Source of the DNA: a virus
Reading direction: 5' to 3' (one strand)
Virus genome (UHGV): UHGV-0153759
Length of the DNA: 13,808 nucleotides
In this document: piece after piece, positions 2,886 to 13,758 of the stretch
Layout of the letters: each line of letters opens with the position of its first letter
How positions within the stretch are numbered: position 1 is the stretch's first letter
Position numbers and translations under genes: made by a program
The notes under the pieces: generated by a model
The model's input: the letters and a program-made list of their open reading frames with translations, nothing else
What the model was told of the DNA's origin: nothing
The model's database searches: none

Positions 2886-3794
2886 ATGCCGATTATCGAC
2901 CTGAACCAGCTACCCGCACCGGATGTGGTCGAGGAGCTGGACTTTGAAACCATTCTTGCCGAACGCAAGGCGACACTGATTTCCCTTTACCCGGAAGACC
3001 AGCAGGAGGCGGTCGCCCGTACCCTGACGCTGGAATCCGAGCCTCTCGTCAAACTGCTGGAGGAAAATGCTTATCGTGAGCTTATCTGGCGTCAGCGTGT
3101 GAATGAGGCCGCACGGGCGGTGATGCTGGCCTGTGCCGCCGGTAATGACCTTGATGTGATTGGTGCCAATTACAACACCACGCGCCTGATTATCACCCCG
3201 GCAGATGATTCGACCCTCCCGCCGACACCGGCAGTGATGGAATCTGATACCGATTATCGTCTGCGTATTCAGCAGGCGTTTGAAGGTTTAAGCGTCGCCG
3301 GGTCGGTGGGGGCCTATCAGTATCATGGTCGCAGTGCTGACGGGCGTGTCGCGGATATTTCTGTCACCAGTCCGTCTCCGGCCTGCGTCACCATCTCTGT
3401 GCTGTCACGTGAAAATAACGGCGTCGCATCCGAAGACCTGCTGGCTGTGGTGCGTAACGCCCTTAATGGCGAGGACGTCAGGCCGGTGGCCGACCGCGTG
3501 ACCGTGCAGTCTGCCGCCATCGTTGAATACCAGATAAACGCCACGCTTTACCTTTACCCTGGTCCCGAAAGCGAACCCATACGCGCTGCCGCCGTGAAAA
3601 AACTGGAAGCGTACATCACGGCACAGCACCGGCTGGGGCGTGACATCCGTCTGTCTGCCATTTATGCCGCTTTGCATGTGGAAGGCGTGCAGCGTGTTGA
3701 ACTGGCTTCACCACTGGCCGACATCGTGCTCAACAGTACGCAGGCGTCTTTCTGTACCGAATACCGCGTCGTGACCGGAGGCTCGGATGAGTGA
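2886..3794 (+). CDS. J: baseplate assembly protein J
   Basis: 302 aa, P2 gpJ size and position in the V-W-J-I block. Confidence 0.85.
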   Translation: MPIIDLNQLPAPDVVEELDFETILAERKATLISLYPEDQQEAVARTLTLESEPLVKLLEENAYRELIWRQRVNEAARAVMLACAAGNDLDVIGANYNTTRLIITPADDSTLPPTPAVMESDTDYRLRIQQAFEGLSVAGSVGAYQYHGRSADGRVADISVTSPSPACVTISVLSRENNGVASEDLLAVVRNALNGEDVRPVADRVTVQSAAIVEYQINATLYLYPGPESEPIRAAAVKKLEAYITAQHRLGRDIRLSAIYAALHVEGVQRVELASPLADIVLNSTQASFCTEYRVVTGGSDE

Positions 3795-4398
3795 TTCGCG
3801 CCTGCTGCCGACCGGCTCATCACCGCTTGAAGTCGCTGCTGCAAAAGCCTGTGCGGAAATTGAAAAAACGCCGGTCAGTATTCGTGAGCTGTGGAACCCG
3901 GACACCTGCCCGGCAAATCTGCTGCCGTGGCTGGCGTGGTCATTTTCGGTTGACCGCTGGGATGATAAGTGGCCGGAAGCGACAAAACGCGCCGTTATCC
4001 GCGATGCGTATTTCATTCACTGCCATAAGGGCACTATAGGCGCAATCCGGCGTGTGGTGGAGCCGCTCGGCTATCTGATTGAGGTGAGGGAGTGGTGGCA
4101 ACTCAATGAGGAGCCGGGGACGTTCCGTATCGTTGTTGGCGTGCTTGAGCAGGGTATTACCGAGGAAATGTATCAGGAGCTGGAGCGCCTAGTTGCTGAT
4201 GCAAAACCGGCAAGCCGCCATCTGACGGGACTGGCTATCAGTTTAAGTACAACCGGCAACATTTTTGCCGGTGCGGGATGCTATCACGGCGACGCCCTGA
4301 CGGTTTATCCCTACACCCCGGAGGCCATTATTGTCGGAGGGGATTATTTCCCGGCCTCGGCCATTCATTTAATTGATAACCTGAGAGTAAACGCATGA
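3787..4398 (+). CDS. I: baseplate/tail protein I
   Basis: 203 aa at the P2 gpI position; start overlaps the J stop by 8 nt and the stop overlaps the H start (ATGA). Longer than I expect for P2 gpI, so the true start could be internal. Confidence 0.75.
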   Translation: MSDSRLLPTGSSPLEVAAAKACAEIEKTPVSIRELWNPDTCPANLLPWLAWSFSVDRWDDKWPEATKRAVIRDAYFIHCHKGTIGAIRRVVEPLGYLIEVREWWQLNEEPGTFRIVVGVLEQGITEEMYQELERLVADAKPASRHLTGLAISLSTTGNIFAGAGCYHGDALTVYPYTPEAIIVGGDYFPASAIHLIDNLRVNA

Positions 4399-5684
4399 CA
4401 GTGAAATACTACGCCATTCTGACTAATCAGGGCGCAGCACGGCTGGCTAACGCGACGATGCTCGGCAGTAAGCTGAATCTGACGCAAATGGCCGTTGGTG
4501 ATGCGAATGGTGTCTTGCCGACACCAGACCCGGCACAGACAAAACTGATTAACCAGAAACGCATCGCGCCGCTGAATCTTCTGAGTGTTGACCCGAACAA
4601 CCAGAGCCAGATTATTGCGGAGCAAATCATCCCTGAGAACGAGGGCGGATTCTGGATCCGTGAGATTGGGCTTTATGATGATGAAGGCGTACTCATTGCG
4701 GTGGCGAACTGCCCGGAAACGTACAAACCGCAGTTGCAGGAAGGCAGTGGTCGTACCCAGACTATCCGCATGATTCTGGTTGTCACGAATACCGAAGCTA
4801 TCACGCTGAAAATCGACCCGTCGGTGGTACTGGCGACCCGTAAATACGTGGATGATGAAGTCCTGGAATTAAGGCTGTATGTGGATGACCAGATGAGAAA
4901 CCACATTGCCGCACAGGATCCTCATACCCAGTATGCGCAGAAACATAATCCGACATTTACCGGAGAACCAAAAGCGCCGACGCCTGCCGCAGGAAATAAC
5001 ACCACGCGGATTGCGACCACTGCGTTTGTACAGGCTGCTATTACCGCTCTGATTGACGGTGCGCCAGCCACGCTGGACACGCTGAAGGAAATTGCAGCAG
5101 CTATCAACAATGACCCGAAATTCAGCACCACCATTAACAATGCGCTGTCAGGTAAGCAACCACTGGATGAGACGCTGACTCATTTGAGTGGAAAGGATGT
5201 GGCTGGTCTTCTCGCATACCTTGGTTTGGGAGAAGGCTCAGCATTACCCGTTGGTGTCCCTGTTCCCTGGCCTTCTGTCACACCACCGACAGGCTGGCTG
5301 AAATGCAACGGTGCGGCTTTTTCTGCTGAAGAATACCCGGAACTGGCAAAGGCTTACCCGAGCGGAAAATTACCTGATTTACGCGGTGAATTTATTCGTG
5401 GCTGGGATGACGGGCGCGGTGTGGATACAGGTCGAGCCATCTTAAGCGCACAGGAATGGTTGACAGGGAGTCATTGTCACTATATCCGGTCATGGGACGC
5501 ATGGAATAATACAGTACTGGAACCAAATGACAGACAGGGCGACAGTCTGTTGTCGACAGATAACGCCGTGCAGGAAGGTGCGATTAACGGGAGGTTTACC
5601 AGTCAATACAGAACGGAGTTTTCAGGGGGAAATGAAACCCGCCCACGTAACATCGCCTTCAATTATATTGTGAGAGCTGCATAA
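4395..5684 (+). CDS. H: tail fibre protein H: constant N-terminal part fused to a variable, invertible C-terminal part
   Basis: 429 aa. C-terminal part carries a tail-collar-like motif (PTGWLKCNGAAFSAEEYPELAKAYPSGKLPDLRGEFIRGWDDGRGVD). A recombination site lies at codon ~276 (LAYLGLGEG, 5209-5234). Confidence 0.85.
   Translation: MTVKYYAILTNQGAARLANATMLGSKLNLTQMAVGDANGVLPTPDPAQTKLINQKRIAPLNLLSVDPNNQSQIIAEQIIPENEGGFWIREIGLYDDEGVLIAVANCPETYKPQLQEGSGRTQTIRMILVVTNTEAITLKIDPSVVLATRKYVDDEVLELRLYVDDQMRNHIAAQDPHTQYAQKHNPTFTGEPKAPTPAAGNNTTRIATTAFVQAAITALIDGAPATLDTLKEIAAAINNDPKFSTTINNALSGKQPLDETLTHLSGKDVAGLLAYLGLGEGSALPVGVPVPWPSVTPPTGWLKCNGAAFSAEEYPELAKAYPSGKLPDLRGEFIRGWDDGRGVDTGRAILSAQEWLTGSHCHYIRSWDAWNNTVLEPNDRQGDSLLSTDNAVQEGAINGRFTSQYRTEFSGGNETRPRNIAFNYIVRAA
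5209..5234. repeat. left inversion crossover site (hix/gix-like, 26 bp) inside H
   Basis: TTCTCGCATACC-TT-GGTTTGGGAGAA: two imperfectly palindromic 12-bp half-sites around a central TT, with the AAACC/GGTTT core typical of Hin/Gin sites. 5221-5234 is the exact reverse complement of 7133-7146. Confidence 0.7.
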
Positions 5685-6286
5685 TGAATAACGCGATATT
5701 AAATAATGACCTTATTGCCGTACAGGCGGGAAACGTCATCGTTTATAACTATGATGGTGAGACGCGGGAATATATTTCCGAATCAACTGAATATCTTGCT
5801 GTGGGTGTTGGTATTCCGGCATGTTCCTGTTTAGAGGCTCCTGGTACACATAAGGATGGTTATTCAATTTGCCGCTCTGTGGATTTAAATTCATGGGAAT
5901 ATGTGCCGGACCATCGCGGTGAAATTGTCTTTAGCACCGAAACAGGAGAATCAAAAGAAATCACAGCACCGGGTGATTACCCTGATAATACAACCACTCT
6001 CGTACCGTTAACGCCATACGATAAATGGGATGGTGAAAAATGGGTGACAGATACTGAGGCACAGCATAGTGCCGCAGTAGGCGCGGCAGAAGCACAGCGT
6101 CAGTCACTGATTGATACTGCAATGGCTTCCATTAGTCTGATTCAACTGAAATTGCAGACCGGGCGGAAGCTGACGCAGACAGAAAACACCCGACTTAACG
6201 CTGTGCTGGATTACATTGACGCGGTGACGGCAACTGATACCAGCACCGCGCCGGATATCAATTGGCCTGCTCCCCCGGAGGCGTAG
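5684..6286 (+). CDS. tail fibre assembly (chaperone) protein, G/U-like
   Basis: 200 aa directly after H (TAATG overlap); C-terminus has the tail-fibre-assembly signature (DYIDAVTATDTSTAPDINWPAPPE). Appears AT-richer than the flanking tail genes. Confidence 0.8.
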   Translation: MNNAILNNDLIAVQAGNVIVYNYDGETREYISESTEYLAVGVGIPACSCLEAPGTHKDGYSICRSVDLNSWEYVPDHRGEIVFSTETGESKEITAPGDYPDNTTTLVPLTPYDKWDGEKWVTDTEAQHSAAVGAAEAQRQSLIDTAMASISLIQLKLQTGRKLTQTENTRLNAVLDYIDAVTATDTSTAPDINWPAPPEA

Positions 6287-6674
6287 GCCAGACGGGATTT
6301 GATGTATCAACGCGCATCAGCAAGACCCGGTATTTTTTCCATTCAGATAACGCGGCGGTTTCTTCTGCCGTCGCGATTTCCGCATCAAAAGCATCCTGTC
6401 TCCAGACTATTTCCTTATCAGCCATAGAACGCAATACCGTTCTTTTCTGTTCAGCCTGAATAATCTGTTGTTCAGCGGAGAGTGGCGGGATATCAATCCA
6501 CGCAGGATTACCATTTTTATCAGCCCCCAGCGTTTTGCCTTGTGGCGCTACGCCTGTGTAAATTGCCATTGTTTCATCATCAACATCAACGCCATTTTCA
6601 GGCCATGAACCGGCGCTGATATATACCTCTTTTAGTGCTTTCGGATAGAAAGAGCCTTTATAAAATTTATTCAT
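6258..6674 (-). CDS. second tail fibre assembly protein, inverted orientation (U'-like)
   Basis: Start is probably the ATG at 6674 (MNKFYKGSFYP, typical Tfa N-terminus); the supplied ORF extends to a TTG at 6704. C-terminus WKKYRVLLMRVDTSNPVWPTPPGE is the Tfa signature. Convergent with the + strand Tfa gene, sharing 29 bp at the 3' ends. Confidence 0.7.
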   Translation of the reverse strand: MNKFYKGSFYPKALKEVYISAGSWPENGVDVDDETMAIYTGVAPQGKTLGADKNGNPAWIDIPPLSAEQQIIQAEQKRTVLRSMADKEIVWRQDAFDAEIATAEETAALSEWKKYRVLLMRVDTSNPVWPTPPGEQAN

Positions 6675-6676
6675 TC

Positions 6677-7186
6677 TTAATACCCCAGCGCGATAAAACA
6701 ACAATCTTCGGTGCCCTCTCCGGATGGCGACCAGTTCTGAATACTGATATGCGTTCTGCTGGCAATACGCACATTCATCGCGGCATTGTAGCCAGATGTT
6801 CCACGGTTTCCGGTCGCAAATAAGCCTGCATAGGGAAAAGCAAATGGTAAGGCATATCCAGCATCAGCTCCCTTTTGTGTTGCCACCGTTCCCCACTGCA
6901 ACATAAGTTTCACCGGGTTTCCTGTCGTCGCAATGCATGGAATGTAGATGTAGCCATTCCCTGACATCATTGACCTGAAGCTGTCTAAATCCAGTAACTT
7001 CGAGGCATTATCTGCTCCAACATCTCGTGTTGCGGCGGTCCCTAACTGGAGCGCATTTCGGAAGGCTGATACATCAGAAATATCAGCTCCATTAGCCGAT
7101 TTCTGCATAGCTCCGGAGGCTTTATTTATCGTTTCTCCCAAACCAACGTTTAAGAAAATGCAGAGATTACGGCTAACTGGCATCAT
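6677..7186 (-). CDS. alternative tail fibre C-terminal segment (Sv'-like), expressed only after inversion fuses it to the H N-terminus
   Basis: Minus-strand frame is open from the stop at 7196-7198 down to 6677; the ATG at 7186 is probably not a real start. Contains the in-frame crossover site (NVGLGE, 7133-7158) and a fibre-tip-like motif (GYIYIPCIATTGNPVKLMLQWG). Its stop abuts the Tfa' start. Confidence 0.65.
   Translation of the reverse strand: MMPVSRNLCIFLNVGLGETINKASGAMQKSANGADISDVSAFRNALQLGTAATRDVGADNASKLLDLDSFRSMMSGNGYIYIPCIATTGNPVKLMLQWGTVATQKGADAGYALPFAFPYAGLFATGNRGTSGYNAAMNVRIASRTHISIQNWSPSGEGTEDCCFIALGY
7133..7158. repeat. right inversion crossover site (hix/gix-like, 26 bp), 55 bp upstream of the invertase remnant
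   Basis: TTCTCCCAAACC-AA-CGTTTAAGAAAA; 7133-7146 is the reverse complement of 5221-5234 (14/14), and the central dinucleotide is compatible (TT vs AA). Confidence 0.7.
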
Positions 7187-7213
7187 CCCCGGTTTTTATT
7201 CAGGGGATCCATC

Positions 7214-7396
7214 ATGCTTATTGGCTATGTCCGCGTGTCAACAAATGACCAGAATACGGAATTGCAGCGTAACGCGCTGGAGTGCGCAGGATGTGAGCTG
7301 ATTTTTGATATTGGCCTGTCCACGCTCTATAAAAAATTCCCCTCATCAGCGACAAAGAATAAATTGTGTCATCCCTTAGCCAACCGGGACAAATAG
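7214..7396 (+). pseudogene. remnant of a Hin/Gin/Pin/Cin-family serine DNA invertase with an in-frame internal deletion
   Basis: 60 aa. N-terminus MLIGYVRVSTNDQNTELQRNALECAGCELIF matches, from my memory of Pin/Hin, the invertase N-terminus including the catalytic Ser; it joins directly to IGLSTLYKKFPSS, which resembles the extreme C-terminal helix-turn-helix tail. About 130 codons of the catalytic domain are missing. Confidence 0.75.
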
Positions 7397-7455
7397 CCTG
7401 ACATCTCCGGCACAACAGAAAATATCACTCACCCATTAACCACGGAGTTAAACGG

Positions 7456-8646
7456 ATGAGTGACTATCATCACGGCGTGCAGGTGCTGGAGATTAACGAC
7501 GGCACCCGCGTCATTTCCACCGTATCCACTGCCATTGTCGGCATGGTCTGCACGGCCAGCGATGCGGATGCGGAAACCTTCCCCCTCAATAAACCTGTGC
7601 TGATTACCAATGTGCAGAGCGCAATTGCAAAGGCCGGTAAAAAAGGCACGCTGGCAGCATCGTTGCAGGCCATCGCTGACCAGTCAAAACCGGTCACCGT
7701 TGTCGTGCGTGTGGAAGACGGCACCGGCGACGACGAAGAAACGAAACTCGCGCAGACCGTTTCCAATATCATCGGCACCACCGACGAAAACGGTCAGTAC
7801 ACCGGACTGAAAGCCCTGCTGGCGGCGGAGTCGGTAACCGGTGTTAAACCGCGTATTCTTGGTGTGCCGGGACTGGACACCAAAGAGGTGGCTGTTGCAC
7901 TGGCATCAGTCTGTCAGAAGCTGCGCGCTTTCGGGTATATCAGCGCATGGGGCTGTAAAACCATTTCCGAGGTGAAAGCCTACCGCCAGAATTTCAGCCA
8001 GCGTGAGCTGATGGTCATCTGGCCGGATTTCCTCGCATGGGATACGGTCACCAGTACCACCGCCACCGCGTATGCCACCGCCCGTGCGCTGGGTCTGCGC
8101 GCTAAAATCGACCAGGAGCAGGGCTGGCATAAAACGCTGTCCAATGTCGGGGTGAACGGTGTTACCGGCATCAGCGCATCCGTCTTCTGGGATTTGCAGG
8201 AGTCCGGCACCGATGCTGACCTGCTTAACGAGTCAGGCGTCACTACGCTGATTCGCCGCGACGGTTTCCGCTTCTGGGGTAACCGTACCTGCTCCGATGA
8301 CCCGCTGTTCCTCTTTGAAAACTACACCCGCACCGCGCAGGTGCTGGCCGACACGATGGCTGAGGCGCACATGTGGGCGGTGGACAAGCCCATCACCGCA
8401 ACGCTGATTCGCGACATCGTTGACGGCATCAATGCCAAATTCCGTGAGCTGAAAACAAACGGCTATATCGTGGATGCGACCTGCTGGTTCAGCGAAGAAT
8501 CCAACGATGCGGAAACCCTCAAGGCCGGAAAACTGTATATCGACTACGACTATACCCCGGTGCCTCCTCTTGAAAACCTGACCCTGCGCCAGCGTATTAC
8601 CGATAAATACCTGGCAAATCTGGTCACCTCGGTTAACAGCAATTAA
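7456..8646 (+). CDS. FI: contractile tail sheath protein FI
   Basis: 396 aa, P2 gpFI size, first gene of the FI-FII-E-T-U-D block; GGAG about 8 nt upstream of the ATG. Confidence 0.9.
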   Translation: MSDYHHGVQVLEINDGTRVISTVSTAIVGMVCTASDADAETFPLNKPVLITNVQSAIAKAGKKGTLAASLQAIADQSKPVTVVVRVEDGTGDDEETKLAQTVSNIIGTTDENGQYTGLKALLAAESVTGVKPRILGVPGLDTKEVAVALASVCQKLRAFGYISAWGCKTISEVKAYRQNFSQRELMVIWPDFLAWDTVTSTTATAYATARALGLRAKIDQEQGWHKTLSNVGVNGVTGISASVFWDLQESGTDADLLNESGVTTLIRRDGFRFWGNRTCSDDPLFLFENYTRTAQVLADTMAEAHMWAVDKPITATLIRDIVDGINAKFRELKTNGYIVDATCWFSEESNDAETLKAGKLYIDYDYTPVPPLENLTLRQRITDKYLANLVTSVNSN

Positions 8647-8658
8647 GGAGCCTGACCG

Positions 8659-9177
8659 ATGGCAATGCCGCGCAAACTCAAGTTAATGAACGTCTTTCTG
8701 AACGGCTACAGCTATCAGGGCGTTGCAAAGTCCGTCACGCTGCCAAAACTGACCCGTAAGCTAGAAAACTATCGCGGTGCGGGGATGAACGGCAGCGCAC
8801 CGGTAGACCTCGGCCTTGATGACGATGCGCTGTCAATGGAGTGGTCGCTCGGGGGCTTCCCGGATTCGGTTATCTGGGAGCTTTACGCCGCAACCGGTGT
8901 GGATGCCGTGCCGATTCGTTTTGCTGGTTCTTACCAGCGCGACGATACCGGCGAAACGGTGGCCGTTGAAGTGGTCATGCGTGGACGTCAGAAAGAAATC
9001 GACACCGGCGAGGGTAAACAGGGAGAAGACACTGAGTCGAAAATCTCCGTGGTCTGCACCTATTTCCGGCTGACGATAGACGGTAAGGAGCTGGTCGAAA
9101 TCGACACCATCAACATGATTGAGAAGGTGAACGGCGTCGACCGGCTGGAGCAACACCGCCGCAATATCGGCCTGTGA
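8659..9177 (+). CDS. FII: tail tube protein FII
   Basis: 172 aa, P2 gpFII size, directly after the sheath gene; AGGAG RBS at ~8644-8648. Confidence 0.9.
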   Translation: MAMPRKLKLMNVFLNGYSYQGVAKSVTLPKLTRKLENYRGAGMNGSAPVDLGLDDDALSMEWSLGGFPDSVIWELYAATGVDAVPIRFAGSYQRDDTGETVAVEVVMRGRQKEIDTGEGKQGEDTESKISVVCTYFRLTIDGKELVEIDTINMIEKVNGVDRLEQHRRNIGL

Positions 9178-9509: not shown

Positions 9510-9661
9510 CGTTTCCGAAAAATCTCTCGGTCGATGACCTGATGGCGGATGTGGCAGTGATATTTCACTGGCCGCCATCAGAACTGTATCCCATGAGCCT
9601 GACCGAACTCATCACATGGCGCGAAAAGGCGCTCCGGCGAAGCGGAAACACGAATGAGTAA
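9234..9661 (+). CDS. tail assembly chaperone E' (E+E' fusion via programmed -1 frameshift at 9482-9488)
   Basis: After a -1 slip on T6G, the -1 frame stays open from 9488 to a TAA at 9659-9661, overlapping the T start at 9654; this gives ~142 aa, the P2 E' arrangement. Confidence 0.65.
9482..9488 (+). promoter_or_regulatory. T6G slippery heptamer for the E/E' programmed -1 frameshift
   Basis: TTTTTTG read as GGT-TTT-TTG in the E frame, 7 codons before the E stop; the -1 frame is open to 9661. Confidence 0.65.
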
Positions 9662-12101
9662 CAATGTAAAATTACAGGTATTGCTCAGGGCTGTTGACCA
9701 GGCATCCCGCCCGTTTAAATCCATCCGCACAGCGAGCAAATCGCTGTCGGGGGATATCCGGGAAACACAAAAATCACTGCGCGAGCTGAACGGTCAGGCA
9801 TCCCGTATTGAGGGATTTCGCAAGACCAGTGCACAGCTCGCCGTGACTGGTCATGCACTTGAAAAGGCACGGCAGGAGGCCGAAGCCCTTGCCACACAGT
9901 TTAAAAACACCGAACGTCCGACACGTGCTCAGGCGAAAGTGCTGGAATCCGCAAAGCGTGCGGCGGAGGACTTACAGGCGAAATATAACCGCCTGACGGA
10001 TTCCGTTAAACGCCAGCAGCGGGAACTGGCCGCTGTGGGAATTAATACCCGCAATCTTGCACATGATGAGCAGGGACTGAAAAACCGTATCAGTGAAACC
10101 ACCGCACAGCTTAACCGTCAGCGTGACGCGCTGGCTCGTGTCAGTGCGCAACAGGCAAAACTTAACGCAGTAAAACAGCGTTATCAGGCAGGCAAGGAAC
10201 TGGCCGGAAATATGGCCTCAGTGGGCGCTGCCGGTGTGGGGATTGCGGCGGCGGGAACGATGGCCGGAGTTAAGTTGCTGATGCCCGGTTATGAGTTTGC
10301 GCAGAAAAACTCAGAATTGCAGGCCGTGCTCGGAGTGGCAAAAGACTCCGCCGAAATGACCGCACTACGCAAACAGGCGCGCCAGCTCGGCGACAATACC
10401 GCCGCCTCGGCGGATGATGCGGCCGGTGCACAGATAATCATCGCGAAAGCGGGTGGGGATGTTGATGCCATTCAGGCGGCAACGCCGGTCACGCTGAATA
10501 TGGCGCTGGCGAACCGCCGCACGATGGAAGAAAACGCCGCCCTGCTGATGGGGATGAAATCCGCCTTTCAGCTTTCAAACGATAAGGTCGCTCATATCGG
10601 GGATGTTCTCTCCATGACGATGAACAAAACCGCCGCCGATTTTGACGGTATGAGCGATGCGCTGACCTATGCCGCACCTGTGGCAAAAAATGCCGGTGTC
10701 AGCATTGAAGAAACCGCCGCAATGGTCGGGGCGCTGCATGATGCAAAAATTACCGGTTCAATGGCGGGGACGGGAAGCCGTGCCGTGTTAAGCCGTCTGC
10801 AGGCACCGACGGGAAAAGCATGGGATGCACTGAAAGAGCTTGGCGTAAAAACCTCAGACAGTAAGGGGAATACCCGACCAGTATTTACCATTCTGAAAGA
10901 AATGCAGGCCAGTTTTGAGAAAAACCGGCTCGGTACTGCCCAGCAGGCTGAATACATGAAAACCATTTTCGGGGAGGAGGCCAGCTCAGCCGCCGCCGTG
11001 CTGATGACTGCCGCCTCAACCGGAAAGCTGGACAAACTGACCGCTGCGTTTAAAGCCTCAGACGGGAAGACCGCCGAGCTGCTAAATATCATGCAGGACA
11101 ACCTCGGCGGTGACTTTAAAGAGTTTCAGTCCGCTTATGAGGCGGTGGGGACTGACCTGTTTGACCAGCAGGAAGGCGCACTGCGTAAGCTCACGCAGAC
11201 GGCCACAAAGTATGTGTTAAAACTCGACGGCTGGATCCAGAAAAACAAATCACTGGCGTCAACCATCGGCATCATTGTCGGTGGTGCACTGGCACTGATT
11301 GGTGTCATCGGTGCCATTGGCCTCGTAGCCTGGCCGGTTATCACCGGCATCAATGCCATCATCGCGGCAGCAGGCGCAATGGGGGCAATCTTCACGACGG
11401 TTGGCAGTGCTGTTATGACCGCCATCGGAGCGATTAGCTGGCCGGTTATGGCCGTGGTGGCCGCCATTGTCGCCGGGGCGTTGCTTATCCGTAAATACTG
11501 GGAGCCTGTCAGCGCATTCTTTGGCGGTGTGGTGGAAGGGCTGAAAGCGGCATTTGCGCCGGTGGGGGAACTGTTCACGCCACTTAAGCCGGTGTTTGAC
11601 TGGTTGGGCGAAAAGTTACAGGCCGCGTGGCAGTGGTTTAAAAACCTGATCGCCCCGGTTAAAGCCACCCAGGACACCCTGAACCGTTGCCGTGACACGG
11701 GCGTCATGTTCGGGCAGGCACTGGCTGACGCGTTGATGCTGCCGCTTAATGCGTTCAACAAACTGCGCAGTGGTATTGACTGGGTACTGGAAAAACTCGG
11801 TGTTATCAACAAAGAGTCAGACACACTTGACCAGACCGCCGCCAGAACTCATGCCGCCACGTATGGCACCGGTGGTTATATTCCGGCGACCAGCTCTTAT
11901 GCAGGCTATCAGGCTTATCAGCCGGTCACGGCACCGGCTGGCCGCTCTTATGTAGACCAGAGTAAAAACGAATATCACATCAGCCTGACGGGTGGTACTG
12001 CGCCGGGGACACAGCTCGACCGCCAGTTACAGGATGCGCTCGAAAAATACGAGCGGGATAAACGTGCGCGCGCCCGTGCCAGCATGATGCATGACGGTTA
12101 A
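9654..12101 (+). CDS. T: tail tape measure protein T
   Basis: 815 aa; coiled-coil-like Q/A/R-rich N-terminal third, long Gly/Ala/Ile-rich hydrophobic segment in the middle, position after E/E'. Confidence 0.9.
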   Translation: MSNNVKLQVLLRAVDQASRPFKSIRTASKSLSGDIRETQKSLRELNGQASRIEGFRKTSAQLAVTGHALEKARQEAEALATQFKNTERPTRAQAKVLESAKRAAEDLQAKYNRLTDSVKRQQRELAAVGINTRNLAHDEQGLKNRISETTAQLNRQRDALARVSAQQAKLNAVKQRYQAGKELAGNMASVGAAGVGIAAAGTMAGVKLLMPGYEFAQKNSELQAVLGVAKDSAEMTALRKQARQLGDNTAASADDAAGAQIIIAKAGGDVDAIQAATPVTLNMALANRRTMEENAALLMGMKSAFQLSNDKVAHIGDVLSMTMNKTAADFDGMSDALTYAAPVAKNAGVSIEETAAMVGALHDAKITGSMAGTGSRAVLSRLQAPTGKAWDALKELGVKTSDSKGNTRPVFTILKEMQASFEKNRLGTAQQAEYMKTIFGEEASSAAAVLMTAASTGKLDKLTAAFKASDGKTAELLNIMQDNLGGDFKEFQSAYEAVGTDLFDQQEGALRKLTQTATKYVLKLDGWIQKNKSLASTIGIIVGGALALIGVIGAIGLVAWPVITGINAIIAAAGAMGAIFTTVGSAVMTAIGAISWPVMAVVAAIVAGALLIRKYWEPVSAFFGGVVEGLKAAFAPVGELFTPLKPVFDWLGEKLQAAWQWFKNLIAPVKATQDTLNRCRDTGVMFGQALADALMLPLNAFNKLRSGIDWVLEKLGVINKESDTLDQTAARTHAATYGTGGYIPATSSYAGYQAYQPVTAPAGRSYVDQSKNEYHISLTGGTAPGTQLDRQLQDALEKYERDKRARARASMMHDG

Positions 12102-12115
12102 GGAGGTGACGAAAA

Positions 12116-12595
12116 ATGATGCTCGCGTTAGGTATGTTTGTTTTTATGCGCCAGACGCTGCCACACCAGACCATGCAGCGTGAATCAGATTATCGCTGGC
12201 CGTCAAATTCCCGTATCGGTAAACGGGATGCCTTTCAGTTTCTCGGTGTGGGTGAGGAAAACATTACGCTTGCCGGCGTGCTTTATCCCGAACTGACCGG
12301 CGGCAAGCTGACGATGACCACGCTCAGGCTGATGGCAGAGGAAGGCCGGGCGTGGCCGTTGCTGGATGGCACTGGCATGATTTATGGCATGTATGTCATC
12401 AGCAGGGTGAGTGAAACAGGGAGTATTTTCTTTGCAGACGGCACACCCCGGAAAATTGATTTTACGCTGTCACTCACCCGCGTTGATGAATCACTGGCCG
12501 CGCTTTATGGCGATATCGGTAAACAGGCGGAGTCGCTTATTGGTAAGGCTGGCAGTATGGCGACCAGATTCACAGGTATGACGGGGGCGGGATAA
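12116..12595 (+). CDS. U: tail protein U
   Basis: 159 aa, P2 gpU size and position; AAGGAGGTGA RBS at ~12101-12110; stop overlaps the D start (TAATG). Confidence 0.85.
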   Translation: MMLALGMFVFMRQTLPHQTMQRESDYRWPSNSRIGKRDAFQFLGVGEENITLAGVLYPELTGGKLTMTTLRLMAEEGRAWPLLDGTGMIYGMYVISRVSETGSIFFADGTPRKIDFTLSLTRVDESLAALYGDIGKQAESLIGKAGSMATRFTGMTGAG

Positions 12596-13758
12596 TGCTG
12601 GACGCGCTGACATTTGATGCAGGCAGTACGCTGACGCCGGATTACATGCTGATGCTCGACAGCAGGGATATTACCGGCAATATCAGCGACCGTCTGATGA
12701 GCATGACCCTGACGGATAACCGGGGCTTTGAGGCTGACCAGCTTGATATTGAACTGAACGATGCCGACGGGCAGGTCGGGCTGCCGGTTCGTGGCGCTGT
12801 CCTGACGGTGTATATCGGCTGGAAAGGTTTTGCCCTGGTATGCAAAGGGAAATTTACCGTTGATGAGGTTGAACACCGGGGCGCGCCGGATGTGGTCACC
12901 ATCCGCGCCCGGAGTGCAGATTTTCGCGGGACGCTCAATTCCCGCCGTGAAGGCTCCTGGCATGACACCACGCTCGGTGCGATTGTTGAGGCGATAGCCT
13001 CCCGTAACAGGCTGGAAGCCAGTGTCGCGCCGTCACTGGCCGGAATTAAAATCCCGCACATCGACCAGTCGCAGGAGTCTGATGCAAAATTCCTGACCCG
13101 CCTTGCTGAACGCAACGGCGGTGAGGTGTCGGTAAAAATGGGAAAACTGTTGTTTCTCAAAGCGGGGCAGGGGGTGACGGCCAGCGGTAAAAAAATCCCG
13201 CAGATCACCATCACCCGCAGCGACGGTGACCGTCATCATTTTGCGATTGCTGACCGTGGAGCCTATACCGGCGTAACGGCAAAGTGGCTTCACACCAAAG
13301 ACCCGAAGCCGCAAAAGCAGAAGGTAAAACTGAAACGCAAAAAGAAAGAGAAACACCTGCGCGCACTGGAGCACCCGAAAGCGAAACCAGTCACGCAGAA
13401 GAAAGCGCCAAAAGTACCGGAAGCGCGCGAAGGTGAATACATGGCCGGTGAGGCTGACAACGTTTTTGCCCTGACCACGGTATATGCCACGAAAGCGCAG
13501 GCCATGCGCGCCGCTCAGGCGAAGTGGGATAAGCTGCAACGGGGCGTGGCGGAGTTCTCCATCAGCCTGGCTACCGGTCGGGCAGATATTTACACGGAAA
13601 CACCGGTCAAAGTGTCAGGCTTTAAGCGCGTCATAGACGAGCAGGACTGGACAATCACTAAGGTGGCACATTTTCTGAATAATAGCGGCTTCACGACGTC
13701 CTTAGAGCTTGAGGTCAGGCTTTCTGATGTGGAGTATGAAACAGAAGATGATGAGTGA
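12595..13758 (+). CDS. D: tail protein D
   Basis: 387 aa, P2 gpD size, last gene of the tail operon; contains an internal Lys-rich low-complexity stretch. Confidence 0.85.
   Translation: MLDALTFDAGSTLTPDYMLMLDSRDITGNISDRLMSMTLTDNRGFEADQLDIELNDADGQVGLPVRGAVLTVYIGWKGFALVCKGKFTVDEVEHRGAPDVVTIRARSADFRGTLNSRREGSWHDTTLGAIVEAIASRNRLEASVAPSLAGIKIPHIDQSQESDAKFLTRLAERNGGEVSVKMGKLLFLKAGQGVTASGKKIPQITITRSDGDRHHFAIADRGAYTGVTAKWLHTKDPKPQKQKVKLKRKKKEKHLRALEHPKAKPVTQKKAPKVPEAREGEYMAGEADNVFALTTVYATKAQAMRAAQAKWDKLQRGVAEFSISLATGRADIYTETPVKVSGFKRVIDEQDWTITKVAHFLNNSGFTTSLELEVRLSDVEYETEDDE

Follow-up and report, generated by a model that had tools for sequence, protein, structure and literature searches.

Phage segments that invert to exchange one tail-fiber tip for another are already known from the G segment of Mu (gix sites, Gin, S/U and S'/U'), the C segment of P1 (cix sites, Cin), the P segment of the cryptic E. 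coli prophage e14 (pix sites, PinE, stfP/stfE and tfaP/tfaE) and the P2-like prophages of EPEC E2348/69, within which inversion phase variation has been shown experimentally (PMC4272514). In Mu G and P1 C, the crossover falls within the fiber open reading frame, and the invertase gene lies adjacent to the segment with the enhancer held in its 5′ end. The Fis dependence of the recombinational enhancer is established for the Din family, and the invertase Fin of the Fels-2 prophage is reportedly able to act in trans on the H segment of Salmonella, a finding attributed to Kutsukake in 2006. Trans action has also been published for e14, the P segment of which is inverted by PinQ of the Qin prophage (PMC12529663). 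Here, we compare these systems with a locus in a 13,808-nucleotide stretch of viral DNA, the whole of which is referred to as the window.

A pix-type pair of sites in a P2-like tail module

The window shows the P2-like (Peduovirus-type) tail gene order V-W-J-I-H ... FI-FII-E-E'-T-U-D, which bears out the P2-type setting given in the original prediction, and the genes of this module are annotated alike in loci that are 98-99.9% identical. The cassette has the P2-type gene H on one side and the sheath gene on the other; the latter is its right-hand neighbor, a P2 FI-type open reading frame on the plus strand at 7456-8646, and in every homologous locus its counterpart bears the annotation phage tail sheath protein. 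In a sister lineage, the prophage end is formed by ogr, which adjoins fieF/pfkA. The locus thus resides in a P2-like prophage of E. coli. Annotations of this arrangement can be found in many E. coli genomes as well as among deposited records of P2-like phages; in KC618326/NC_041848, pro483, 500465-2, S164 and Salmonella phage MET_P1_103_31, the order is H, tfa, tfa, fiber, DNA invertase and sheath, as in the window. In contrast to the window, which carries an allele with a 411-bp in-frame deletion, these deposited phage and prophage copies have a full-length invertase gene.

A repeat search of the window recovered the two predicted 26-bp sites as its top inverted repeat (5209-5234 and 7133-7158; 26 nt, 81% complementary, spacing of 1898 nt), including their perfect 14-bp inverted core (TTGGTTTGGGAGAA at 5221-5234 and TTCTCCCAAACCAA at 7133-7146). 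When the 13.8-kb window was searched with the core and 3 or fewer mismatches were permitted, just 2 positions were matched, and by arithmetic the number of pairs of exact 14-mers expected by chance is about 1e-4. The other inverted repeats listed by the repeat search are 12-20 nt long and imperfect.

The left, pixL-like site (5209-5234) reads TTCTCGCATACC TT GGTTTGGGAGAA with its central dinucleotide at 5221-5222, and the right, pixR-like site (7133-7158) reads TTCTCCCAAACC AA CGTTTAAGAAAA with its central dinucleotide at 7145-7146. As in the Din family, this is an inverted pair of 26-bp sites with imperfect 12-bp half-sites around a 2-bp core, and the two cores are reverse-complementary. We aligned the sites with pix, cix and gix. 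The left site equals e14 pixL (CTCTCGAAAACCTTGGTTTGGGAGAA) at 23/26 positions, and the right site equals e14 pixR (TTCTCCCAAACCAACGTTTATGAAAA) at 25/26 positions. The inverted repeat of e14 is given in the literature as TTGGTTTGGGAGAAGG, the 14-bp core of which is the same as that of the window (PMC12529663). The TT/AA center is likewise that of the e14 P segment, whereas Mu gix has TC/GA. The sites had been described as hix/gix-like; the assignment to the Din family stands, but they are of the pix (e14 P-segment) type and not of the gix type.

Gene content and reading frames of the segment

From central dinucleotide to central dinucleotide, the invertible segment spans 5221-7146 (1926 bp), with Sv and tfa on the plus strand and tfa' and Sv' on the minus strand; at 1.9 kb it is smaller than the segments of Mu (about 3 kb) and P1 (4.2 kb). 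Gene H starts at 4395 and its codon 276 is CTT at 5220-5222, while codon 14 of the minus-strand open reading frame from 7186 to 6677 is GTT at 7147-7145. In both frames, the central TT occupies codon positions 2 and 3 and is followed by GGT TTG GGA GAA (GLGE). Inversion of 5221-7146 in silico produced an uninterrupted H' of 431 aa (...LAYLGLGE-TINKASGAMQKS...ALGY) with a 138-aa assembly gene on its 3′ side, in agreement with the predicted in-frame exchange at H codon 276 and the predicted placement of the second assembly gene downstream. As in known host-range switches, the crossover is within the fiber open reading frame, either C-terminus is in frame, and each has its own chaperone.

The constant part of H, Sc (4395-5220, plus strand), consists of codons 1-275 and the first base of codon 276 of the open reading frame at 4395-5684. 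Its N-terminal domain matches Pfam Phage_tail_fib (residues 1-150, E=2.5e-62), and among other genomes Sc is found fused to either variable part. The currently expressed variable C-terminus, Sv (5223-5684, plus strand, residues 277-429), matches Pfam Collar PF07484 (E=1.9e-14) and, in the PDB, the tip of T4 gp37 (2xgf, E=1.5e-17) as well as short tail fibers (T4 gp12), and it has 61% identity to K-12 StfE. The assembly chaperone for Sv is encoded by tfa (5684-6286, plus strand, 200 aa, TfaE-like), which matches Pfam Caudo_TAP (E=1.3e-32) and has 84.5% identity to K-12 TfaE and 99% to the copy in the e14-like element of HeN100.

On the minus strand, the silent chaperone gene for Sv', tfa' (6258-6674, 138 aa, ATG at 6674), also matches Caudo_TAP (E=1.7e-31). 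Its counterpart in the related loci L001 (ETEC4089) and L004 (E. coli strain 10) is 417 bp long and annotated as tail fiber assembly protein, and in flipped genomes tfa' is found immediately 3′ of H'. The silent alternative C-terminus, Sv' (6677-7144, minus strand), belongs to a predicted open reading frame that extends to an ATG at 7186, beyond the segment. It matches Pfam Gp53-like_C PF21882 (E=1.7e-8) and PHROG tail-fiber families, and the stretch of the open reading frame that spans the junction motif (residues 10-49) aligns with the Mu S/S' chimera 8ju3 (E=1e-4). The homology check proposed for 6677-7186 (minus strand) thus identified tail-fiber sequence, as had been supposed. In 87 genomes, H and Sv' form a single reading frame. 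NCBIfam gave no match for H, Sv' or the invertase remnant described below.

The locus shares with the e14 P segment the 14-bp core, nearly equal 26-bp sites, the TT/AA center and the layout of a constant fiber part, a segment of Sv and tfa facing tfa' and Sv', and an invertase gene. It differs in that the constant part is an e14 fiber gene there and the H gene of a P2-type myovirus tail module here, in that the second cassette of K-12 e14 is a different one (DNA of the window matches from the TfaE/StfE side only), and in that the invertase gene is deleted in the window. The architecture of Mu G (constant H, Sv-tfa facing tfa'-Sv', invertase) is matched, and Mu G and P1 C have the same mechanism, gene logic and position of the invertase gene. 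However, the variable proteins of Mu are only 35-43% identical to those of the window over partial lengths (35% between Sv' and Mu S' over 76 aa, and 43% between tfa' and Mu U over the C-terminal 68 aa).

A truncated invertase gene with a putative enhancer

In the window, no functional serine invertase gene of the Din family adjoins the segment. At 7214-7396 (plus strand) lies a remnant of such a gene, 60 codons long, which joins N-terminal residues 1-31 to the last 29 residues without a shift of frame. The remnant matches the Pfam Resolvase N-terminal domain over residues 3-35 only and the PHROG family DNA invertase, and 2 of its N-terminal 31 residues are not those of PinE. Compared with the 594-bp gene that is intact in L001, it lacks 411 bp in frame; the full 594-bp gene is present in the close relatives L001, L004 and L005. 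The intact gene contains a 12-bp direct repeat at nucleotides 84-95 and 495-506 (codons LIFE and LIFD). At the deletion junction (7297-7308), the window has the sole remaining copy, GCTGATTTTTGA, and the BLAST pieces of the window against the intact gene share a 12-bp overlap. The 411 bp were probably lost by recombination or slippage between the two direct repeats, and as a result the switch cannot flip itself. A role of the 60-aa remnant as a functional mini-protein was considered and rejected, as the catalytic and DNA-binding domains are both largely missing.

The recombinational enhancer of Hin is 65 bp long and is located about 100 bp from hix (PMC3798978), and in the P1 record the Cin enhancer is annotated at cin nucleotides 19-90. 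The equivalent of the P1 enhancer in the window is found at 7232-7303, within the remnant and wholly in retained sequence; the two align without gaps at 57/72 identical positions, and the ends are conserved (CGCGT.TCAACAAATGA and GCGCAGGATGTGAGCT). Judging from this position and identity to the P1 annotation, 7232-7303 would be a retained enhancer. The original remark that the sites look intact though the invertase does not is accurate, both sites being present beside a 60-aa remnant, and it can be widened to the stretch that corresponds in position to the annotated P1 enhancer.

Both orientations in sequenced genomes

The junction in the orientation of the window is contiguous in 15 records, and the predicted flipped junction is contiguous, as a single piece, in 87 complete E. 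coli genomes. In L004, the segment is reverse-complemented between the same flanks with 99.84% identity (3 mismatches in 1929 bp), and the annotated order is the flipped one, H' (1296 bp) followed by tfa' (417 bp). L004 and L001 are exact flips of one another and have a common invertase protein, WP_074613307.1; L004 is an exact flip of the window arrangement as well, as expected for Din-family inversion.

Segment orientation in lineages with the deletion

We consider it likely, with a probability of about 85%, that the locus is a Din-family (Hin/Gin/Cin/Pin) cassette of the e14 P-segment type in a P2-like prophage, which has lost the ability to flip itself and can still be inverted in trans. 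A serine invertase would pair the two 26-bp sites and cut at the central TT/AA dinucleotides, and rotation followed by religation would invert 5221-7146. With the crossover in H codon 276, the constant 276-residue shaft would be joined to one of two tips, either the collar-type Sv together with tfa or the gp53-like Sv' together with tfa', and the exchange of tips would alter the receptor specificity of the virion. Since both sites and the enhancer equivalent are kept, the segment should remain invertible in trans, and a related invertase from another prophage or a plasmid could supply the missing activity.

Prophages that have the identical remnant and share one insertion site at fieF/pfkA are separated by no more than 2 SNPs across 18.3 kb and yet occur in both orientations, 6 one way and at least 12 the other. 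In the tape-measure gene, each allele of one SNP occurs with both orientations, so that two or more flips since the deletion are implied, with the reservation that this is a single SNP and that a like pattern could result from recurrent mutation or from gene conversion. In these prophages (the Y5-type loci), the two inner half-sites differ (GGATTTGGAGAA versus GGTTTGGGAGAA) and move together with the segment. One of the inner half-sites is a 2-substitution variant, and the exact-core search gave no match at these loci. Because the adjacent inner half-sites differ, the exchange is confined to the 4 bp TTGG, which includes the canonical crossover. By this comparison of near-clonal genomes, the deletion allele is still flipping in at least one lineage. 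In both GYB01 and OZ547259 there is a second prophage of the P2-like kind, the invertase gene of which is of full length, and these prophages are possible invertase donors. The comparisons suggest that an invertase is supplied in trans in sister lineages, and the switch of the window can probably be flipped in the same way.

One competing explanation is that the locus is a frozen relic in which the loss of the invertase locked the present orientation for good and the sites have merely not yet decayed. The reduction of the invertase to 60 codons, without most of its catalytic and DNA-binding domains, fits this explanation, and some assemblies of truncated lineages show one orientation per genome. 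However, a locked segment is at odds with the near-clonal prophages that share the identical deletion but not the orientation and that show exchange at the canonical crossover, and with a SNP pattern that needs at least two flips; the enhancer-equivalent stretch is also kept in full, and action of Din invertases on the segments of other elements, such as that of PinQ, is established. We therefore regard a permanently locked segment as unlikely.

A second explanation attributes the orientation differences among truncated prophages to homologous recombination or gene conversion with other prophages, or to independent deletions in ancestors that had already flipped, rather than to inversion in trans. 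At least five other cassette contents (L011, L012, L013, L014 and L028) are found together with this remnant allele, and therefore recombinational reshuffling around the locus is common. The deletion, which is seen with several different cassettes, is bounded by 12-bp direct repeats and could arise repeatedly; some orientation differences could thus predate independent deletions. Nevertheless, the breakpoints of the Y5-type loci fall within 4 bp, which is too short for homologous recombination and is exactly what a Din invertase would leave, and the flanks, remnant and segment are 99.9-100% identical across orientations, which speaks against independent deletions in diverged ancestors. We regard this second explanation as quite unlikely. 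Finally, the reading of the inverted repeat as a chance or structural feature beside minus-strand open reading frames that are not tail-fiber genes, which has in its favor only the general frequency of short repeats, is contradicted by the roughly 1e-4 expectation for an exact 14-bp core that is present only twice and by the identity of this core to the published e14 recombination core, and it is refuted by domain matches to tail-fiber tips and chaperones, by the flipped junction in genomes and by the exact flip in L004.

Distribution of the deletion allele

The reading as a trans-invertible cassette adds nothing new to the host-range switch as such, the mechanism having been textbook knowledge from Mu G, P1 C and e14 P onward. 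What it indicates is that a switch need not be dead because its invertase seems to be, since the deletion spares the sites and the enhancer position and the comparative data show that flips took place after it. This is relevant to the annotation of prophage "pseudogenes" and to the reading of assembly differences among otherwise clonal genomes, and it agrees with recent reports of prophage invertases that work across elements, as PinQ does on e14. At least 25 complete genomes, with 7 or more different cassette contents, carry the deletion allele. We tentatively raise the possibility that the 411-bp in-frame deletion, beyond being a product of random decay, is a recurrent or long-lived allele that retains the enhancer, and that it leaves an orphan inverton driven entirely by the invertases of co-resident prophages or plasmids. 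If so, the fiber choice of one phage would be coupled to the presence or activity of another.

Among 5,426 complete genomes, the exact combination of the full two-cassette segment and the truncated invertase gene was found in 0. The closest member of this collection, EC16, is 99.8% identical over window positions 4395-7034 and is interrupted inside Sv'. The e14-like element of HeN100 carries window positions 5210-7308 at 98% identity.

Structure of the tail-fibre switch

A P2-type late operon runs through the window, with ORFs at 1902-2537, 2534-2881, 2886-3794, 3787-4398 and 4395-5684 and then at 7456-8646, 8659-9177, 9654-12101, 12116-12595 and 12595-13758, and homologous RefSeq loci (98-99.9% identical) are annotated with baseplate V, W, J and I, tail fibre, sheath, tube, tape measure, U and D. 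The ORF order and these annotations bear out the P2-type tail module of the original prediction. The tail-fibre gene H (4395-5684) has a Phage_tail_fib N-terminal domain (residues 1-150), and Sv, the C-terminus that it now encodes, carries a Collar domain and has PDB matches to short tail fibres and to the tip of T4 gp37. Caudo_TAP tail-fibre chaperones are encoded at 5684-6286 on the plus strand (tfa) and at 6258-6674 on the minus strand (tfa'). The silent minus-strand ORF Sv' (6677-7186) is related to tail fibres, as had been proposed, with a Gp53-like_C domain, matches to PHROG tail-fibre families and, near the junction motif, a match to the Mu S/S' chimera 8ju3.

A repeat search showed that the strongest inverted repeat in 4300-7500 has 26-nt arms at 5209-5234 and 7133-7158 (81% complementary), the same two sites with a perfect 14-bp inverted core that had been named beforehand. 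The window holds two copies of this core and no more, one per strand, even with 3 mismatches allowed. The central dinucleotide is, as claimed, the second and third base of a codon on both sides: codon 276 of H is CTT (5220-5222), codon 14 of the Sv' ORF is GTT (7147-7145), and in both frames GGT TTG GGA GAA follows the central TT. Reverse-complementing 5221-7146 in silico produced a 431-aa H' reading ...LAYLGLGETINKASGAMQKS...ALGY with the 138-aa assembly gene directly after it, which reproduces the expected in-frame swap of the H C-terminus and places the second assembly gene downstream. Between the right site and the start codon of the invertase gene there is a terminator-like hairpin with a trailing T-run (7175-7194, plus strand); the mechanical start of the Sv' ORF (7186) falls inside this hairpin.

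In the 26-bp alignment, the left site reads TTCTCGCATACC TT GGTTTGGGAGAA and the right site TTCTCCCAAACC AA CGTTTAAGAAAA; the e14 P-segment sites of K-12 read CTCTCGAAAACC TT GGTTTGGGAGAA (pixL) and TTCTCCCAAACC AA CGTTTATGAAAA (pixR), P1 cix has a TT/AA centre, and Mu gix has a TC/GA centre. The published e14 repeats, TTGGTTTGGGAGAAGG and CCTTCTCCCAAACCAA (PMC12529663), share the 14-bp core of the window, and TfaE of the K-12 e14 is 84.5% identical to the window tfa. In addition, an e14-like element of strain HeN100 (L007, 3001-5098) matches window 5210-7308 at 98% identity, a stretch that takes in the two sites, the entire segment and the 5' end of the invertase gene. The site alignment, the HeN100 match and the TfaE identity assign the cassette to the Pin/pix subgroup. 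It works identically to Mu G, yet it is not a gix/Gin element; the inversion logic of the original prediction held, while its hix/gix label gives way to pix/e14-type sites. Several E. coli plasmids of 92-120 kb carry the Sv'-site-invertase stretch at ~98% identity, and together with the HeN100 element these copies indicate that the cassette is a module exchanged among unrelated phage and plasmid backbones.

Both orientations occur in E. coli genomes

A 1001-bp synthetic piece joining the constant part of H to Sv' and tfa' was used as the flipped-junction query. A contiguous match to the predicted flipped left junction was found in 87 complete E. coli genomes (identity up to 99.6%), and the window-orientation junction was contiguous in 15 records. 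Relative to ETEC4089 (L001) and to the window, strain 10 (L004) is exactly flipped: its segment aligns in reverse complement, with 3 mismatches over 1929 bp, and the flanks are collinear. Strain 10 and ETEC4089 encode the identical invertase protein WP_074613307.1. By these comparative data, the segment inverts in related prophages. Inversion has been shown experimentally in P2-like prophages of EPEC (PMC4272514), and several deposited P2-like phage genomes have the gene order of the window with a DNA invertase.

Some related loci are altered. In strain 1002W03 (L002 1501-2784, NZ_CP147056.1), H is annotated as two pseudogene fragments; the cassette is otherwise intact, and its invertase is full-length. 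In strain EC16 (NZ_CP074120.1), a 99.8% match (17851-20490) ends at window 7034, inside Sv', and a weaker match (23068-23913; 95.3%, window 7026-7460) follows ~2.6 kb further on, which suggests an insertion in the silent Sv' gene. Strain NDM2 has the tail-fibre/invertase region on the chromosome (NZ_CP083886.1 1800399-1803876) and again on a separate 43,140-bp record (NZ_CP083887.1 23715-27188); the separate record may represent the P2-like prophage in excised or episomal form.

An in-frame deletion removes most of the invertase

At the position of the window remnant (7214-7396), L001, L004 and a further close relative (L005) have a 594-bp invertase gene. Of this gene, 411 bp are missing from the window, where the two BLAST pieces share 12 bp (7297-7308). 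The 12-mer GCTGATTTTTGA occurs twice in the intact gene, at nucleotides 84-95 (..ELIFE) and 495-506 (..ALIFD), and the deletion took one repeat and everything between the repeats, in frame. The resulting 60 residues are residues 1-31 fused to the last 29, with the match to the resolvase/invertase catalytic domain limited to residues 3-35. Little is left of either the catalytic or the DNA-binding domain, so the predicted product cannot be an active invertase. The sites are intact and the invertase is not, as first proposed.

Of the 60 complete E. coli genomes that matched best, at least 25 contain the same remnant (98.4-100% identity over 314 bp), and the identical 411-bp deletion was found at L003, L011, L012, L013, L014 and L016-L028. 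It is linked to at least seven segment contents (window, Y5 type, SRY149, LD27-1, MNCRE44, NCTC10973 and 1332KP). The exact combination of a full two-cassette segment and a truncated invertase was found in no genome of the 5,426-genome collection. The deletion, which lies between direct repeats and is linked to at least five other cassette contents, may recur, or it may have arisen once and spread by recombinational reshuffling.

Din-family invertases require a cis-acting enhancer whose two ends each hold a Fis site, ~100 bp from one recombination site (PMC3798978); this enhancer is annotated in the P1 record at cin nucleotides 19-90. When cin, gin, pinE, the intact relatives and the window remnant are aligned over their 5' ends, no gaps are needed, and the equivalent of the P1 enhancer is window 7232-7303 (57/72 identical, both ends conserved). 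This putative enhancer lies wholly in retained sequence (collinearity with the intact gene extends to 7308), so all known cis elements appear to be kept in the window.

Inversion in sister prophages after loss of the invertase

Near-clonal sister prophages with the same deletion (Y5 type) are integrated beside fieF/pfkA, and no more than 2 SNPs in 18.3 kb separate the 8 members compared. Sv' is silent in Y5, GYB01, 1000, OZ547259, OZ547064 and P50, and expressed in AR_0137, 005008, 1000C-3, DETEC-S560, TL-14, E-ge-1, 800, PRO_A-1370, OZ501671, ES11, JX4-T and 23CRST051. Their inner half-sites are unequal (GGATTTGGAGAA vs GGTTTGGGAGAA), and in each orientation the inner halves have travelled with the segment while the outer halves have not moved; therefore, the exchange is confined to the 4 bp TTGG, which hold the canonical central TT. 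Such an exchange bears the signature of a Din invertase and not of homologous recombination. A tape-measure SNP (alignment column 12061; WP_064770643.1 vs WP_047149169.1) occurs with both alleles in both orientations: P50 has one allele in one orientation, E-ge-1 and 23CRST051 have the P50 allele in the other, and the remaining strains have the second allele in either orientation. By the four-gamete argument, which uses this one SNP, at least two inversions would have followed the deletion.

The Y5-type segment (L003 2327-3526; L016-L027) is only 1197 bp with a single chaperone gene. One orientation gives a 370-aa H with a short gp53-like tip and no downstream chaperone gene, and the other a 431-aa H' followed by tfa'. 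The inner half-site GGATTTGGAGAA is a 2-substitution variant, yet the segment has inverted. In GYB01 (L015, NZ_CP125731.1), the genes for the virion morphogenesis protein, W, H, the sheath and the tail assembly protein are frameshifted, and near-identical prophages have all 5 intact; since the frameshifts are probably sequencing errors, GYB01 was excluded from the SNP comparison.

The window remnant is identical to the Y5-type remnant over 314 bp and the window sites are canonical, which suggests that the window switch is most likely flippable in trans rather than frozen. It would thus depend on an invertase supplied in trans, with the enhancer position retained. Elements of this type have long been known, are annotated in many genomes and have been documented by experiment in P2-like prophages; the only point that is mildly new is the comparative evidence that a common, enhancer-retaining deletion allele does not halt flipping. 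PinQ acts on e14, a case of the invertase of one prophage acting on the segment of another (PMC12529663). The GYB01 and OZ547259 genomes each contain a further P2-like prophage whose invertase gene is full-length, and these invertases are possible trans donors.
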